IMG/VR virus record: IMGVR_UViG_3300010279_000003
Span: 1 to 44,407 of that record
Length of the DNA stretch: 44,407 nt
DNA from: a virus
Lineage: Duplodnaviria > Heunggongvirae > Uroviricota > Caudoviricetes
Direction: 5' to 3' (one strand)
A model generated the notes under the pieces. The model saw only the letters and a program-made list of their open reading frames with translations. It was not told the origin of the DNA and made no database searches. Shown here piece after piece: positions 12,131 through 33,968 of the stretch; within the stretch, counting starts at the first letter, position 1; every line of letters begins with the position of its first letter. The translations under genes were made by a program, and so were the position numbers.

Positions 12131-12285
12131 ACAGGCTTACTGAACATAAGAATTATCGTAACTTTCCTTCCTTAGTATCTCCGGTTGCCCTGGGCAAGCT
12201 ATATTCTCATCGACGGCATATCTCTTAAGTATCTGATTTTCTTAAAGTGCCGTAGATTCGCAACCGTAAAAATGTAACGATTATT

Positions 12286-12313
12286 GGGCAGGCTTAAGGC
12301 CTGCCCTTTAGTT
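12286..12313 (+). terminator. Intrinsic terminator (stem GGGCAGGC/GCCTGCCC, then TTTAGTT)
   Basis: 8-bp GC-rich stem with T-rich tail in plus orientation. Confidence 0.5.
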
Positions 12314-12378
12314 ACCAAGTAATAAGAATAAAGGCACAACCTTCCCCGAAGAATCACAACGGCAGCGTAACTATTCTC

Positions 12379-12407
12379 TTGCACACCCCAATATAATAGG
12401 ATACTAT
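12379..12407 (+). promoter_or_regulatory. Sigma70-like promoter, class B (TTGCAC-N17-TACTAT)
   Basis: Spacer ...AATATAATAGGATACTATTCA; same family found six times. Confidence 0.6.
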
Positions 12408-12441
12408 TCACTTATCGAAACGAGACAGAGGAGTGAGGGTT

Positions 12442-13344: not shown

Positions 13345-13503
13345 CAGGTCAATAGGTTACTATTTGGCTTAGTGGCTTACGCTGCTACACAGCAGCGTAC
13401 AACTTTAACCTAGTGTCGTCAAAAAGCGACACTTCTCTAAGACTCTGTTGGGTCAGGAATAAAGTGTCTCCGATTAGCGACATTAAACACTAATAAAATT
13501 TAC

Positions 13504-13532
13504 TTGCACACTGGGATAGAATAGGCTACTAT
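13504..13532 (+). promoter_or_regulatory. Sigma70-like promoter, class B (TTGCAC-N17-TACTAT)
   Basis: Followed by conserved leader AAACGAGAGGAGAGACAGAG then ATG at 13563. Confidence 0.6.
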
Positions 13533-13562
13533 TCATTTACACAAACGAGAGGAGAGACAGAG

Positions 13563-21447: not shown

Positions 21448-21467
21448 CCCCTGTTTAAGTTATCTGA

Positions 21468-21496
21468 ATAGTACCCTATTATATTGGTGTCTGCAA
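21468..21496 (-). promoter_or_regulatory. Sigma70-like promoter, class B (TTGCAG-N17-TACTAT)
   Basis: Read on minus strand; about 45 bp nearly identical to the copy at 24318..24346. Confidence 0.6.
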
Positions 21497-23740: not shown

Positions 23741-23744
23741 TAAA

Positions 23745-23773
23745 AGGCCCCATAATGGGGCCTTAGTTTTATT
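23745..23773. terminator. Bidirectional intrinsic terminator
   Basis: Stem AGGCCCC/GGGGCCT, loop ATAAT, T-rich tail. Confidence 0.6.
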
Positions 23774-24290
23774 TAAATCGCGCAGGCATTAACACCATAA
23801 AGGCCGTGTTTGAAAATTGTATTTTGCATCCTCTGGTTTGGTCCTGGAAATCGAAACGAGCAATTTCATTTTTGTATGCCTTAGAAATCTTGTACGCGTC
23901 TGCCAAATAGCGCAGAGTGAACCCTATACTGTCGACAACACCCGGTGTGATGTGCGCCACGCGTCTCCAGTCAGGAAAGTTTCCTTCTACAACATCTACC
24001 GGAAGTGTACATATAAGCGCACGATTATCGTCATAGAAAGATACACTGCCGTTGTCGTGGTTTACCTCTGCGTAGTTAAATTTAGAAGGCTCTCTCCCTT
24101 TGATGTCTATGAGAGTCCCTTTCTCAACGTTGGTCTTCACATTGTCGCAGAACAATCTATGACTGTCCGTAGACACTATCAATCCTTCAGGGTCTATGTA
24201 AAAAGCGTTCAAATAGTAGCGCACATCATTTTTAGCCCTGCATATTTTCGCCCCTACATACGCAGGGAAAGTAATTACTGTAGTAACCAT
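23769..24290 (-). CDS. Truncated beta sliding clamp (DnaN) homologue: domain II plus the C-terminal half of domain III, no domain I
   Basis: Matches to E. coli DnaN as I recall it: DVRYYLN, TDSHRL (vs TDGHRL), FPDWRRV (vs FPDYRRV), IGF..YL.D, C-terminal VLMPARF (vs VVMPMRL); own promoter and AGGAG RBS. Confidence 0.7.
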   Translation of the reverse strand: MVTTVITFPAYVGAKICRAKNDVRYYLNAFYIDPEGLIVSTDSHRLFCDNVKTNVEKGTLIDIKGREPSKFNYAEVNHDNGSVSFYDDNRALICTLPVDVVEGNFPDWRRVAHITPGVVDSIGFTLRYLADAYKISKAYKNEIARFDFQDQTRGCKIQFSNTAFMVLMPARFK

Positions 24291-24317
24291 TTATCATCTC
24301 CTGTTTAAGTTAACTGA

Positions 24318-24346
24318 ATAGTACCCTATTATATTGGTGTGCGCAA
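24318..24346 (-). promoter_or_regulatory. Sigma70-like promoter, class B (TTGCGC-N17-TACTAT) driving the DnaN-like gene
   Basis: Read on minus strand; conserved leader TTAACTTAAACAGGAG follows. Confidence 0.6.
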
Positions 24347-24399
24347 ACTATTTGTTTATATATTCCAGTTATTCCGCTCAATTGTAAATGTTGGAATAA

Positions 24400-24413
24400 A
24401 CTATTCGAATAGT
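24400..24413. promoter_or_regulatory. Perfect 14-bp palindrome ACTATTCGAATAGT (operator-like)
   Basis: Read directly; built from the ACTATTC element found in the promoter family; abuts TTGACT at 24413. Confidence 0.5.
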
Positions 24414-24441
24414 TGACTTTTCACTAAAAATATGATAAGCT
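24413..24441 (+). promoter_or_regulatory. Candidate promoter (TTGACT-N17-TAAGCT)
   Basis: Consensus -35, weak -10; same TAAG-T type -10 as the candidate at 12024..12052. Confidence 0.35.
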
Positions 24442-24447
24442 CCACCT

Positions 24448-24645
24448 GAGCTTGTGAAGTATGAGCAAGCGACCGCGGCGCGGCAGGTAACGGAGCTGGA
24501 CGTAAGTCCTGAGTGTAGTTACGCTGACGCGTTCGGAAGGGCCATACTCTATTGCTTGTGTAAAAAGTAACTGGTTTACTGAGATTACGCCGTTTCTATG
24601 TTTAAATGATAAGGACTAGCGCCCCGCTTTAAGGCGGGGCTTTAC
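24448..24645 (+). ncRNA. Candidate non-coding transcript or leader (~200 nt) between promoter and terminator
   Basis: No ORF of 60 aa or more in the ORF track; only very short ORFs or a 37-codon GTG frame without convincing RBS. Confidence 0.3.
24621..24645 (+). terminator. Intrinsic terminator upstream of the spanin genes
   Basis: Stem GCCCCGC/GCGGGGC, loop TTTAAG, T-rich tail. Confidence 0.55.
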
Positions 24646-24664
24646 TTATCGAGAAAGGGGAAAC

Positions 24665-25051
24665 ATGAATCTTAAAGCAACTGTCGTAGCCGGAGCATGT
24701 TTCGTCGTCCTAGCCTACGCACACGGCATCTATCAATACCGCAGCGGCTGGGGTGAAGGCCGTGCTAATCTCGTTTCGCAGCAACAGCAGAAAGCACAGG
24801 CTGAGCTGACGAAGAAAACACAACGGCAGCAGCAGGATGAATCAAAGGCCGCCGCCGCTGACAACGAAGGCAAGACGAAATCAGAGGTGATTACCCGTGA
24901 AGTCGTTAAGTACATTAAAACGCCTGGCCGCAGCGTGTGCACTTTCGACGATGCTCGCGTCCTGCTCAAGTCCCACGCCGTTGCCAACGCCAATTCCATC
25001 CCCGGATACGACGATGATGCAGCCGCCGTGCAAACTGGCACCGCCAAGTAG
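24665..25051 (+). CDS. i-spanin (Rz-like)
   Basis: N-terminal transmembrane segment, then charged Q/K/E-rich periplasmic region; 128 aa. Confidence 0.7.
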   Translation: MNLKATVVAGACFVVLAYAHGIYQYRSGWGEGRANLVSQQQQKAQAELTKKTQRQQQDESKAAAADNEGKTKSEVITREVVKYIKTPGRSVCTFDDARVLLKSHAVANANSIPGYDDDAAAVQTGTAK

Positions 25052-25160
25052 CGACGCTGACGAGGATTTAGCTATCGACGTTCAGAACGCCGAATGTGTA
25101 CGGCAACTGAGACTGAAAGTGTTCATGTTGCAGGATTACGTGAGGAATATTCTGGAATAG
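24897..25160 (+). CDS. o-spanin (Rz1-like lipoprotein), overlapping the i-spanin in another frame
   Basis: Lipobox LASC after basic N-region, proline-rich mature part; GTG start 24897 with GAGGTG RBS. Confidence 0.65.
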   Translation: MKSLSTLKRLAAACALSTMLASCSSPTPLPTPIPSPDTTMMQPPCKLAPPSSDADEDLAIDVQNAECVRQLRLKVFMLQDYVRNILE

Positions 25161-25242
25161 TTGCCTTGTATGTTGGAATAATTTATTCTTGACATGTAAA
25201 TCCGGGAGGCCCGGATTCCAACGTCCAGGGGACATACTGACT

Positions 25243-26996: not shown

Positions 26997-27012
26997 GGTT
27001 AAGCTATAATCG

Positions 27013-27040
27013 AGAGGGACTTCGGTCCCTCTTTTCATTT
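27013..27040 (+). terminator. Intrinsic terminator after the capsid gene
   Basis: Stem AGAGGGAC/GTCCCTCT, loop TTCG, T-rich tail. Confidence 0.7.
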
Positions 27041-27367: not shown

Positions 27368-27715
27368 ATGGTTGATGTAATTAAACGTCGTATTACCGGT
27401 GTTTCTGATGAAGACTCTGACGGTCAGGTTGAAATCGACATGGCAAACATCTCTCCAGCGTCTTTTTCTACCGCACTGAGCGCCACCACAGCAGTTACAG
27501 CCGGGCAGACTATGACACTGACCGTAGTTGTTACTGGTGGTCTGGAGCCGTATTCCTACCAGTGGTACAAGAACAACAACGCTATCGCCGGGGCAAACGC
27601 GGCTTCCTATGCGAAGGCGTCCACCACTACCGCCGATTCAGGTACGTATAAAGTGGTTGTTCACGACGTGTATGGTAATATTATCTCCAGCAGCACTAAA
27701 GTAACCGTGTCTTAA
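27368..27715 (+). CDS. Ig-like domain protein
   Basis: PYSYQWYKNNNAI...SGTYKVVVHDVYG pattern. Confidence 0.5.
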   Translation: MVDVIKRRITGVSDEDSDGQVEIDMANISPASFSTALSATTAVTAGQTMTLTVVVTGGLEPYSYQWYKNNNAIAGANAASYAKASTTTADSGTYKVVVHDVYGNIISSSTKVTVS

Positions 27716-27751
27716 TACAATGGCCCTTCGGGGCCGTAATAAGGAAAGGTC

Positions 27752-27931
27752 ATGACAGATAATTATGTAATCCGTGAAAAGTACACCCACGTCGATATTG
27801 TCGATGGCCAGGTAATGCCCGTCCGCGGTGTTGTGGAAGCGGATGCGCTGGATGCAGCACAACCGGACAACGAAGAAGCGCACAACAACGGCGGTGGCAC
27901 TAAGCGTCGTCGCCGTAAGTCAGAGGAATAA
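27752..27931 (+). CDS. Small hypothetical protein (~59 aa)
   Basis: Short ORF with AAGGAAAGG RBS. Confidence 0.35.
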   Translation: MTDNYVIREKYTHVDIVDGQVMPVRGVVEADALDAAQPDNEEAHNNGGGTKRRRRKSEE

Positions 27932-27934
27932 TTT

Positions 27935-28447
27935 ATGCCGCTAATCGTGGAAACTGGGGCAATCGTCCCGAATGCCGACAGTTACATTAGTCTGGCTGAC
28001 GCCCGCGCGTTAGCGGCTAATTATGGTCTTGAGTTACCCGCTGACGATACTGCCGCCGAAGTAGCCTTGCGCAACGGCGCTACTTATGTCGGGCTTGTAG
28101 AACCGCAGATGTGTGGTCGTCGTGTATCCGCGGAGCAGTCCCTGGCGTATCCTCGCACTGGTGTAACGTTGAATGGTTTTCCTGTAGCCAATAACGTAAT
28201 CCCTAAACAGGTAATTCTTGCGCAGGTAATCGCCGCTGCTACATATGGTGCCGGTACTGAGGTGCGGGCTAACTCTGATGGGCGTTCCGTGCAGACTGAG
28301 CGTGTCGAGGGTGCGGTAACAGTGACCTACTTCAACAACGGCAGCAGTGGTGCTACGACCGCGATTACCGCTGCAGACGACGCCTTACGCCCGTTACTGT
28401 GCGGTGGTCTTAACAATGGCTTCTCGTTTAATGTGTACCGGGGTTAA
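27935..28447 (+). CDS. Hypothetical structural protein (possible head-tail connector)
   Basis: 170 aa; position in head-to-tail joining region. Confidence 0.45.
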   Translation: MPLIVETGAIVPNADSYISLADARALAANYGLELPADDTAAEVALRNGATYVGLVEPQMCGRRVSAEQSLAYPRTGVTLNGFPVANNVIPKQVILAQVIAAATYGAGTEVRANSDGRSVQTERVEGAVTVTYFNNGSSGATTAITAADDALRPLLCGGLNNGFSFNVYRG

Positions 28448-28449
28448 AA

Positions 28450-29064
28450 ATGGCGAAGACTAAATCTGAGATATTTACCCTTATAGGGCAGGAGTTACCC
28501 GACAACACGACGGGGCTTATCACTCCGGCCAAGCTGCGCGGTGTTCTTACGCAGATGGCTGACTCACCTATTTACGCCACTCCTGGCGTTAAAGAGGTTG
28601 AAGTTCTCCGTGCCGCGTCTACCGTAACACAAGCGCCTACCGCGGTAGATACGGCATTGCAGTTAACTTTCGGTCCCGCGCAGGGTAGCGCATCTGACCC
28701 GGTAATGATTAATGCAGCGGGTCTGGTTACGTTCAACACTGCAGGCAACTACGCCGTTCGCATCAAGTTACAGGCGGGGCGCACTGGAGCGAGCGGGACG
28801 TCCGTCCTGTTATCGCGCATTCTTCTTAACGGCGCACAGTACGCCTCGCCAGCAGCTACTAAACTGGTAAGTGCTGATACTACAATCCCGATTGAATCTC
28901 GCGTCGTTATTAACACAACCGCAGGCCAGACGTTTGCTGTTCAGATTATGCGGGATAGTGCCGGGACCAACTTCGGCGGCGTATATCTGCAAGTTGCTAC
29001 CGTAACCGCATGGGGTACAGCACCATCCGCATTACTGGTTATTTCGAGACTGGAGGCCGCCTGA
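28450..29064 (+). CDS. Hypothetical structural protein
   Basis: 204-aa ORF. Confidence 0.5.
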   Translation: MAKTKSEIFTLIGQELPDNTTGLITPAKLRGVLTQMADSPIYATPGVKEVEVLRAASTVTQAPTAVDTALQLTFGPAQGSASDPVMINAAGLVTFNTAGNYAVRIKLQAGRTGASGTSVLLSRILLNGAQYASPAATKLVSADTTIPIESRVVINTTAGQTFAVQIMRDSAGTNFGGVYLQVATVTAWGTAPSALLVISRLEAA

Positions 29065-29158
29065 TGAATAAGTTCACATGTGGTGTAGTTTTTGGTTTTC
29101 TTACCGCGGTAGTCTTGCACAGTTACGGTGTTCTTTTGACGCTGCAAGAGGTGCTAAA

Positions 29159-29518
29159 ATGAGCACCGCTTTCAGTAAACGTATGCAAGGCGTCGGTACA
29201 CGCCTGCTAACCAAATTCGGTAGCACGGTATCTCTTGTTCGCGCTGGCTCGAAAGTGTGGGATGAAGTTCTCGGTGAGTATGTCCGGTCCGCGGATGAAG
29301 TGCTGCCGTTGAAAGCTGTTCCGGTTCCTGTTAACGCAGGACTGGTGAACGGTACGACGATTCAGGCGGGCGACATGATTGTTAAAGCCGATTGCAGCGT
29401 CGTTCCGAAGATGGAAGACAAGGTACAATTCGGCGGCGAGCAATGGTCTGTCGTAGGTATCGAGAAGAAGATGGTTAACGATGATGTCGTGGCGTATTTT
29501 ATTCAGGTGAGAAAATGA
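29159..29518 (+). CDS. Putative head-tail joining protein
   Basis: ATG 29159 with GAGGTG RBS inside ORF-track ORF 29078..29518. Confidence 0.45.
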   Translation: MSTAFSKRMQGVGTRLLTKFGSTVSLVRAGSKVWDEVLGEYVRSADEVLPLKAVPVPVNAGLVNGTTIQAGDMIVKADCSVVPKMEDKVQFGGEQWSVVGIEKKMVNDDVVAYFIQVRK

Positions 29519-29910
29519 GTTTCGCGCTTGATGTCTCTAAGTTCGTGGAAAAGGCGAAGAAGAATCCTGAGAAGGTGATGCGTCAGGTGTCTATTAAGCT
29601 GTTTTCCGCTATCATAAAGGCGAGTCCGGTAGATACAGGCCGCTTTCGTATGAACTGGATGGCATCTGGCGGTACTCCTGCTTCCGGGGTTACAGATGCT
29701 ACGGATAAATCAGGAAACACGGCAACCGGAAACGCTACGAGTTTCATACTGAAAGCCGCCGACTGGCGCGAGTTCACGCTGACAAATAACCTGCCGTATG
29801 CACAACGGCTGGAGTATGGCTGGTCACAACAGGCTCCCGCCGGGATGGTCAGGACTAACGTGTCTCGCTTCCAGCAACTAATTAACGAAGAAGCCAACAA
29901 GGTGAAATGA
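29515..29910 (+). CDS. Tail completion protein (HK97 gp10-like)
   Basis: PVDTGRFRMNW motif. Confidence 0.55.
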   Translation: MSFALDVSKFVEKAKKNPEKVMRQVSIKLFSAIIKASPVDTGRFRMNWMASGGTPASGVTDATDKSGNTATGNATSFILKAADWREFTLTNNLPYAQRLEYGWSQQAPAGMVRTNVSRFQQLINEEANKVK

Positions 29911-30323
29911 TGGGCTACTTTGAGGACTTAACAAAAGCGTTCGACGTGCCGCTGGTAGCCTTCGGAACCGCCAACGGCATCAAGGTTGCGCTTGAAAACA
30001 TCGACGCGCCGACGTCAACCGATACGCCGTATCTGGCAAGTTACATGTTACTTGCGGATACAGAACAGGCGGATTTGTTCTTCACAGAACAACGCTCAGG
30101 TGTTTATCAGGTCGACATTAACTACGCATCGGTGAAAGGTAGCGCGCCAATCAATAAAATGGCAGACTTACTTAACACGGCATTTAAAGCAGGTAAGTCA
30201 TTTTCACGTAACGACATCTGCGCCGAGGTTCAATCGGTAAGCCTGGGGCCGCTGATTGTAGAAAACGGATGGGCCAAACGACCATTGTCAATTAACTTTA
30301 TTGCATTCACCAAGAGGCTGTAA
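29907..30323 (+). CDS. Putative tail terminator protein
   Basis: 138 aa immediately upstream of major tail gene. Confidence 0.45.
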   Translation: MMGYFEDLTKAFDVPLVAFGTANGIKVALENIDAPTSTDTPYLASYMLLADTEQADLFFTEQRSGVYQVDINYASVKGSAPINKMADLLNTAFKAGKSFSRNDICAEVQSVSLGPLIVENGWAKRPLSINFIAFTKRL

Positions 30324-33831: not shown

Positions 33832-33872
33832 GGGGTAGCTCCTGTTTGAGTTAACATTGTTGGTGTAAGTGA

Positions 33873-33901
33873 ATAGTATCCTATTATGTTGGGGTGTGCA
33901 A
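33873..33901 (-). promoter_or_regulatory. Sigma70-like promoter, class B (TTGCAC-N17-TACTAT) driving the accessory operon
   Basis: Read on minus strand; spacer ACCCCAACATAATAGGA. Confidence 0.6.
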
Positions 33902-33968
33902 GTAATGTGTTAGAATTATTTTGCGCCTAGTGTCGCACACGAAAAGCGGGTGGTTCCCGTCTGGCGCA

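Follow-up and report, generated by a model that had tools for sequence, protein, structure and literature searches.

A covariation-supported structured RNA between a conserved promoter and the spanin genes of Kagunavirus and Jerseyvirus phages

Results

Layout of the locus

The DNA analyzed here (the window) is a stretch of 44,407 nt, IMG/VR record IMGVR_UViG_3300010279_000003, and is a Kagunavirus genome (Guernseyvirinae). On its plus strand, a strong terminator detected by terminator scan (23744-23764) closes the upstream operon. Further downstream are the spanin genes Rz (24665-25051, plus strand) and Rz1 (24897-25160, plus strand), the latter overlapping Rz and carrying the lipobox LASC, both assigned from the ORF list and the annotation of relatives. 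They are followed by the scaffold gene and then by the major capsid gene (MCP). Between the terminator and Rz lie a minus-strand gene of 173 aa (23769..24290) and, to its right, the interval studied here, which we call the P1 cassette after its promoter. The 381 bases around the cassette are 95-99% identical in 156 deposited phage genomes, with 181 matching records overall; the best whole-genome relatives of the window show only ~90% identity.

The 173-aa gene is beta-clamp-like by annotation of relatives, and its slot is variable, being occupied in other phages by an adenine methyltransferase or a 67-aa hypothetical protein, or empty. In Jerseyvirus, the interval lies directly 3' of a Hoc-like head-decoration gene and its terminator. 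In the GenBank record of the Salmonella phage demigod, a minus-strand tRNA-Ser (L035:1433-1510) is annotated immediately before the cassette, overlapping the Hoc-like gene at its end; no tRNA genes were found in the window by ARAGORN. A motif of ~35 nt, CTTGCACACCCCAAyATAATAGGATACTATTCA, is present in five copies in the window, at 12378-12414 and 13503-13550 on the plus strand and at 21465-21496, 24311-24346, and 33866-33902 on the minus strand. It resembles a set of phage promoters that share a conserved spacer (-35 TTGCAC, 17 nt, -10 TACTAT), one copy of which would drive the minus-strand gene adjoining the cassette.

A conserved extended -10 promoter

Promoter P1 (24413..24441, plus strand) consists of the -35 hexamer TTGACT (24413-24418), a 17-nt spacer, and the -10 hexamer TAAGCT (24436-24441), exactly where an earlier sequence-only reading of this DNA had placed them. 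A TG at 24433-34 gives an extended -10 element (TGaTAAGCT). By sequence criteria, P1 thus has the features of a sigma-70 extended -10 promoter, namely a -35 hexamer, a spacing of 16-18 nt, TGn, and the A2 and T6 of the -10 hexamer. P1 is missing from the output of our consensus scanner, since TAAGCT agrees with TATAAT at no more than three of six positions.

In an alignment of 47 different leaders drawn from IMG/VR and GenBank, the -35 element reads T[T/A/G]GACT. Kagunavirus, Jerseyvirus, and one further clade (clade C; L071, L079, L080, L082) all retain TGnTA..CT and a spacing of exactly 17 nt, while their spacer sequences are wholly different. The same elements and spacing are also kept in paralogues of the cassette in the early region. 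This is the conservation pattern that a functional sigma-70 extended -10 promoter would leave, and the transcript is predicted to start at ~24448.

Repeats shared by two late promoters

Upstream of P1 there is a cluster of TATTCC/GGAATA repeats (24361..24411), delimited by pentamer counting and comparison: TATTCC at 24361-66 and 24370-75, GGAATA at 24393-98, TATTC at 24402-06, and GAATA at 24407-11. It is a candidate operator and forms the left boundary of the conserved cassette; in many relatives the similarity starts exactly at the position of 24361. Within the 44 kb, this region and 25144-25188 are the only two with at least four TATTC/GAATA pentamers per 80 nt, and GGAATA-N3-TATTC occurs exactly twice in the window. 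The arrangement TATTCC-N3-TATTCC (24361-75) plus GGAATA-N3-TATTC (24393-24406) is kept in Kagunavirus, Jerseyvirus, and clade C. An ArgR box was also considered for GGAATA-N3-TATTC, but its half-site spacing is off by one relative to the box consensus.

The sequence-only reading had stressed a perfect 14-bp palindrome, ACTATTCGAATAGT (24400-24413), abutting TTGACT. The palindrome is present, with one T (24413) common to both elements, yet the emphasis on it did not hold up. The window contains two perfect 14-bp palindromes, compared with 2.5 +/- 1.5 in shuffled sequences, that is, the chance level. Its left half is part of the conserved GGAATA-N3-TATTC repeat, and its right half, GAATAGT, is specific to Kagunavirus; Jerseyvirus and clade C have AAAAAGT there. 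What is conserved upstream of P1 is the set of TATTCC/GGAATA repeats. The right half also resembles GGAATAG, which abuts the -35 element of a second promoter, P2.

P2 lies ahead of the scaffold gene (TTGCCT at 25161-66, N17, TATTCT at 25184-89) and, together with a 5' hairpin, occupies 25144..25218 on the plus strand. It carries the P1-type GGAATA/TATTC repeats, which here overlap its spacer and -10 element. The P2 transcript would start with the hairpin AATCCGGG-AGG-CCCGGATT, which covaries across clades; P2 is conserved in Kagunavirus, Jerseyvirus, and clade C with compensatory changes in this hairpin. The repeats at P1 probably bind a regulator and, because such clusters are found at both promoters and nowhere else in the 44 kb, P1 and P2 probably share it.

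A covarying two-hairpin RNA at the start of the leader

The first 96 nt of the predicted transcript (24448..24543, plus strand) form a structured RNA core. We derived its consensus structure with RNAalifold from 12 Kagunavirus variants and built a covariance model (R1) from their alignment. The core consists of a 5' hairpin, SL1 (24450-24470), and a long irregular hairpin, SL2 (24473-24536), with the apical element GGAC-GTAA-GTCC (24498-24509), followed by the invariant GGAAGGG (24535-24541). R1 recognizes a single copy in the window (117 bits) and gives 68 matches in related loci, Jerseyvirus included at E ~1e-5.

Covariance and structure analysis across related phages, the check named in the sequence-only reading, yielded a conserved fold. 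In 24 distinct sequences, 97.6% of the alignment cells at paired positions form standard pairs, compared with 27-42% in slid controls, and 13 of the 28 pairs change on both sides. In 500 shuffles, the values found for the covariation score, the paired fraction, and the numbers of double changes were never reached. These covariation counts come from an alignment fitted to the model (A4); the MAFFT-only alignment (A3) already has four double-change pairs. One position of SL2 is C-G, U-A, or A-U depending on the lineage, and the SL1 stem is GCTTG/CAAGC in Kagunavirus versus ACGCT/AGCGT in Jerseyvirus. The single-sequence minimum free energy structure of the core coincides with the covariation structure (-37.6 kcal/mol, z -2.24), whereas the minus strand folds less well (-27.9 kcal/mol). 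Conserved G.U pairs tie the fold to the plus strand. Invariant across genera are the internal-loop and flanking segments ACCGCGG, AG.GUA, and UUCGGAAGGG. These results support the core as a new structured RNA family backed by covariation.

Several other structural interpretations were discarded. A single long hairpin spanning the whole leader is at odds with the uncompensated variation of its 3' arm CATACT and with the covariation of SL1 by itself. A boxA/nut-like reading of ACTCTATTG fails, since its CTC core varies (ACTC, AGTC, AGGC, ATTC). We found no conserved alternative pairing of the antiterminator/terminator kind; a 7-nt match present in Jerseyvirus has no counterpart in Kagunavirus. 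The best complementary matches of the RNA within the phage genome are 12 nt long, which is the chance level. On the opposite strand, the scanner marked a promoter-like site, TTCACA-18-CATATT (24429-24458), antisense within P1 and SL1; it may be a chance occurrence, given that a repeat-type promoter is already available to the minus-strand gene.

The small ORF is not conserved

As the sequence-only reading had it, there is no ORF of at least 60 aa in the interval and no good ribosome-binding site: the longest plus-strand ORF encodes 38 aa (24454..24570) from a GTG start and has no Shine-Dalgarno (SD) sequence. Most Kagunaviruses have one extra G in GGCGCGGGCAGG relative to the window. Due to this 1-nt indel, the start and N-terminal frame of the ORF differ, and in most relatives it begins at an ATG seven nt downstream of the GTG of the window, at window position 24461, instead of at the GTG itself.

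That reading had listed a micropeptide among three options for the product, and ORFs of 36-39 aa are in fact annotated as hypothetical proteins in many relatives, including Bas70, fEg-Eco19, and Jersey; those of the Jersey type constitute PHROG 14923, and the short stretch AFGRA.LYC is in frame in both Kagunavirus and Jerseyvirus. However, the Kagunavirus and Jerseyvirus peptides are alike only over 12 aa encoded by the invariant RNA segment GCGTTCGGAAGGGCC. Further 1-nt indels truncate or re-frame the ORF in L006, L007, and L053, so that the frame shifts even among near-identical relatives, and model scores remain high in the frameshifted variants. The changes at one variable codon, CTC to GTC, GGC, or TTC (L to V, G, or F), are all non-synonymous, and the ATG of the relatives sits in the SL1 loop. 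A translated micropeptide as the functional product is thus the least credible of all the explanations weighed in this study. A conserved, translated small ORF that explains the region was not found, as neither frame nor start is conserved and an RBS is lacking. The other two options, a small RNA and a leader, stand: the fold covaries, and the segment is the only possible 5' leader of Rz/Rz1.

Linker, 3' hairpin, and read-through into the spanin genes

The core is followed by an AU-rich linker of 77 nt (24544..24620, plus strand), which is predicted to be unstructured (fold z +0.96). The segment 24544-24664, comprising the linker, the following hairpin, and the SD of Rz, shows 96-100% identity among Kagunavirus loci that share only 83-96% identity in their MCP genes. 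The linker motifs CTRAGATT.CGCCGT and ATGTTTA are common to Jerseyvirus as well.

At 24621..24650 (plus strand), scan and folding detected a GC-rich hairpin, GCCCCGCT/GGCGGGGC, with 8 bp and the loop TTAA (24621-24640), followed by CTTTACTTAT. It is the first-ranked plus-strand terminator-like site in the 20-30 kb region and folds with -17.2 kcal/mol (z -3.4). In the window, its eight pairs plus CTTTACTTAT satisfy the intrinsic-terminator rule of the scanner. The stem has undergone three independent compensatory changes (GCCCTGC/GCAGGGC, GCCCGGC/GCCGGGC in Jersey, and GCCCGAC/GTCGGGC), and the loop varies. The T-rich tract is modest in the window (CTTTACTTAT), weak in Jerseyvirus (TTAGCGTAT), and absent in clade C. 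A long U tail of the kind found in Hfq-dependent sRNAs is absent. We also compared the stem CCCCGC/GCGGGG with the CRISPR I-E repeat. Mimicry of this repeat was dismissed, since the flanking sequences do not match and the stem is altered in Jerseyvirus and L003.

Only 24 nt separate the hairpin from the ATG of Rz, and they contain no promoter. Since upstream plus-strand transcription is stopped at 23744, Rz/Rz1 must be transcribed by read-through from P1, and a terminator at the hairpin is leaky by necessity. The intrinsic terminator that the sequence-only reading had placed at 24621..24645 is therefore retained as a hairpin with a T-rich tail, but not as an efficient stop. The hairpin may be either a leaky intrinsic terminator or a 3'-end/stability hairpin. 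With the weak U-tract of Jerseyvirus and its absence in clade C, some clades may lack a discrete short RNA.

The cassette is exchanged and duplicated as a unit

The cassette is more conserved than its surroundings, with 92-100% identity compared with 76-97% for the flanking Rz, scaffold, and capsid genes. Three IMG/VR contigs of Salmonella phages, 2595698663, 2706796610, and 2974591975 (L077, L091, and L103), have a Kagunavirus-type cassette (96-98%) within Jersey-type flanks (Rz 77%, scaffold 82%, capsid 83%). This arrangement indicates that the cassette has been exchanged between lineages as one unit by recombination.

Many Kagunaviruses contain a second copy, in which the core promoter and SL1-SL2 (57-99 bits) are followed by a divergent linker and a separate GC hairpin; it is present, for example, in L008, L017, L028, L129, Esher4, and Snoke, with loci such as L017:1575-1850 and L226:1250-1500. 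It keeps only promoter, RNA, and hairpin, without the TATTCC repeats, and sits between a minus-strand HTH gene and a separate promoter of the early plus-strand genes. As a complete unit upstream of that promoter, the early copy can hardly have any output but RNA. It is missing from the window, Bas70, and Jersey, which have the late copy only, and is therefore dispensable. All Kagunaviruses and Jerseyviruses carry the late copy, always in the same place. At the position of the relatives' early copy, the window has an unrelated segment (12150-12348) with the hairpin GGGCAGGC-TTAA-GGCCTGCCC (12288-12310).

The leaders of clade C were not recovered by the covariance models, and their homology is established by manual comparison only. 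In a fourth clade (L085, L088, L094), a different, strong consensus promoter is found upstream of Rz, and the leaders start with two hairpins, of which the apical one is GGGCC-GTAA-GGCC. A second model, R2, gives 10-17 bits at the equivalent position (L085:1403-1484, L088:1402-1475, L094:1280-1359). Weak matches at exactly the equivalent place suggest that the leader architecture predates detectable sequence similarity.

Rfam 15 gave no match over the whole window at gathering thresholds, and at E <= 10 the best match within 24300-24700 was wcaG, with 16 bits against a threshold of 42. Among the matches listed in a loose pattern scan of viral contigs, 79 loci were screened with R1, and the true hits all belonged to Guernseyvirinae; the matches listed in a similar scan of genome contigs are from unrelated phyla. 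No similarity was found in 5,426 E. coli genomes. We found no description of this RNA in the literature, and an RNA-seq paper on a Kagunavirus (vB_Eco_K1B4, PMC12645636) does not treat intergenic regions or intergenic RNA.

Discussion

A possible dual-output RNA cassette

We tentatively favor, as a possible rather than an established account, that the interval is a self-contained non-coding cassette with a dual output, which serves as a small-RNA gene and at the same time as a leader that attenuates the spanin genes, and that its product is RNA and not a peptide. In this scheme, host sigma-70 RNA polymerase would start at P1, which is flanked by the putative regulator-binding TATTCC/GGAATA repeats. 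The 96-nt RNA with SL1, SL2, and GGAAGGG would be transcribed first, followed by the conserved, unstructured AU-rich stretch. At the hairpin 24621-24640, some polymerases would terminate, or the transcript would be trimmed back, to leave a stable RNA of ~195 nt as the main product. Other polymerases would read through and supply the only available mRNA for Rz/Rz1. The RNA core may work by binding a protein, and the transcribing polymerase is one candidate partner.

In layout, the closest known system is the PR'-6S RNA-tR' unit of lambda, and in placement and shape it is HK022 put; we could assign the cassette to neither. Like the lambda unit, it has a sigma-70-type promoter, a predicted non-coding RNA of ~195-200 nt ending in a terminator-like hairpin, and lysis and head genes that need read-through, and the order P1, ~195-nt leader, hairpin with T-rich tail, Rz/Rz1, scaffold, and MCP fits a lambda-type late unit. 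The differences are considerable. In lambda, Q normally lies just upstream, whereas here a Hoc-like gene or a minus-strand moron does, and no Q is annotated in relatives; only the spanins follow the cassette, with holin and endolysin elsewhere; the phage is virulent; its relatives have a second, early-region copy; and the RNA has a strong, covarying structure and no sequence relative among the Rfam families. The short transcript of the PR'-6S-tR' late unit of Stx phages is described in PMC7547250 as a regulatory sRNA, StxS.

HK022 put RNA is ~70 nt long, forms two stem-loops directly after PL, and acts in cis on the transcribing polymerase through the beta' zinc-binding domain, suppressing downstream terminators (PMC9378689). 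Both putL/putR and the present RNA are promoter-proximal two-stem-loop RNAs at the 5' end of transcripts, heading one or two operons and followed by terminators or terminator-like hairpins. However, the core here is 96 nt rather than ~70 nt, lacks covariance-model similarity to put, and belongs to another phage family. The cassette also resembles phage morons and small RNAs in having its own promoter and terminator-like hairpin, in lying beside a variable moron slot, and in being exchanged and duplicated, but its cargo is RNA instead of a protein gene, and the late copy is universal at a fixed position instead of sporadic. Stabilizer hairpins of the ompA type and the R sites of T7, which are cleaved by RNase III, place a 5'-end hairpin or a long interrupted duplex in an untranslated leader. 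The cassette is similar in both respects, although its loop and linker are conserved far beyond the needs of such elements.

Alternative explanations

The strongest competitor, which we nevertheless consider rather unlikely, is cis antitermination resembling that of put, in which the nascent SL1-SL2 would bind its own polymerase and make it resist the hairpin at 24621 and later terminators (27012-27033), so that transcripts from P1 extend into the spanin and head genes. Only a few nt lie between the predicted start site and the beginning of the RNA, core promoter and RNA are co-conserved, and the two-stem-loop architecture recalls put (PMC9378689), as does the second copy that heads the early plus-strand operon in many relatives, reminiscent of putL and putR. 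Terminator-like hairpins follow both copies, Rz/Rz1 need read-through, and no antitermination or Q protein is present in the annotation of Bas70 or Jersey. Against this, R1 run without filters on HK022 27600-30100, which includes PL/putL and PR/putR, gave at best 3.6 bits (E 3.2), not at put, and Rfam offers no match; the 3' hairpin is maintained by compensatory changes though it would be overridden; the early copy precedes an independent promoter and is absent in many members including the window; and P2 is located only ~0.5 kb downstream.

Less likely again is that the segment is purely an mRNA stability or processing leader whose RNA has no function of its own, SL1 shielding the transcript from 5'-end-dependent decay, SL2 serving as an RNase III-type site, and the 3' hairpin stabilizing ends. 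A conserved 5' hairpin with covariation is likewise found at the head of the P2 transcripts, the 3' hairpin has only a weak U-tract in Jerseyvirus and none in clade C, and SL2 is a long interrupted duplex of ~20 bp with a shape like that of the T7 RNase III sites. Generic stability elements, however, need neither loop and flanking nucleotides that are invariant across genera nor a linker conserved at 96-100%, and the cassette is also found away from a directly attached coding region. A DNA-level element, such as an operator array or a packaging or replication site with an incidental RNA structure, is highly improbable. The highly non-random restriction of the TATTCC/GGAATA cluster to P1 and P2 speaks in its favor, but the repeats precede the start site and are missing from the early-region paralogues that have promoter and RNA, the conserved G.U pairs make the fold strand-specific, and the promoter is co-conserved with the fold.

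A doubtful further reading, which we rate below both antitermination and the stability leader, is that the cassette is an 'RNA moron', an abundant, horizontally exchanged structured RNA acting in trans on a host or phage protein such as RNA polymerase, an RNA chaperone or nuclease, or a defense component. The contacts would then be made by the invariant internal loop of SL2, by GGAAGGG, and by the single-stranded, conserved linker.

Implications

Kagunavirus and Jerseyvirus are among the phages most often isolated for therapy and biocontrol of E. coli and Salmonella. About 180 deposited genomes carry the cassette nearly unchanged, and ~240 more have a partial, Jersey-type match (~72% identity). 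Existing annotations give either a hypothetical protein of 36-63 aa or a blank at this place, and the covariation-supported RNA corrects them. The cassette is a defined and experimentally tractable element, for example in the BASEL phages Bas70-76 on E. coli K-12, and it bears on the layout of late and lysis transcription in virulent siphoviruses for which no antiterminator is known. Should RNA polymerase or another protein be the target of the RNA, it would represent a new mechanism-bearing RNA family; and if the trans-acting 'RNA moron' reading is true, it would be a new class of phage RNA for host takeover or anti-defense.
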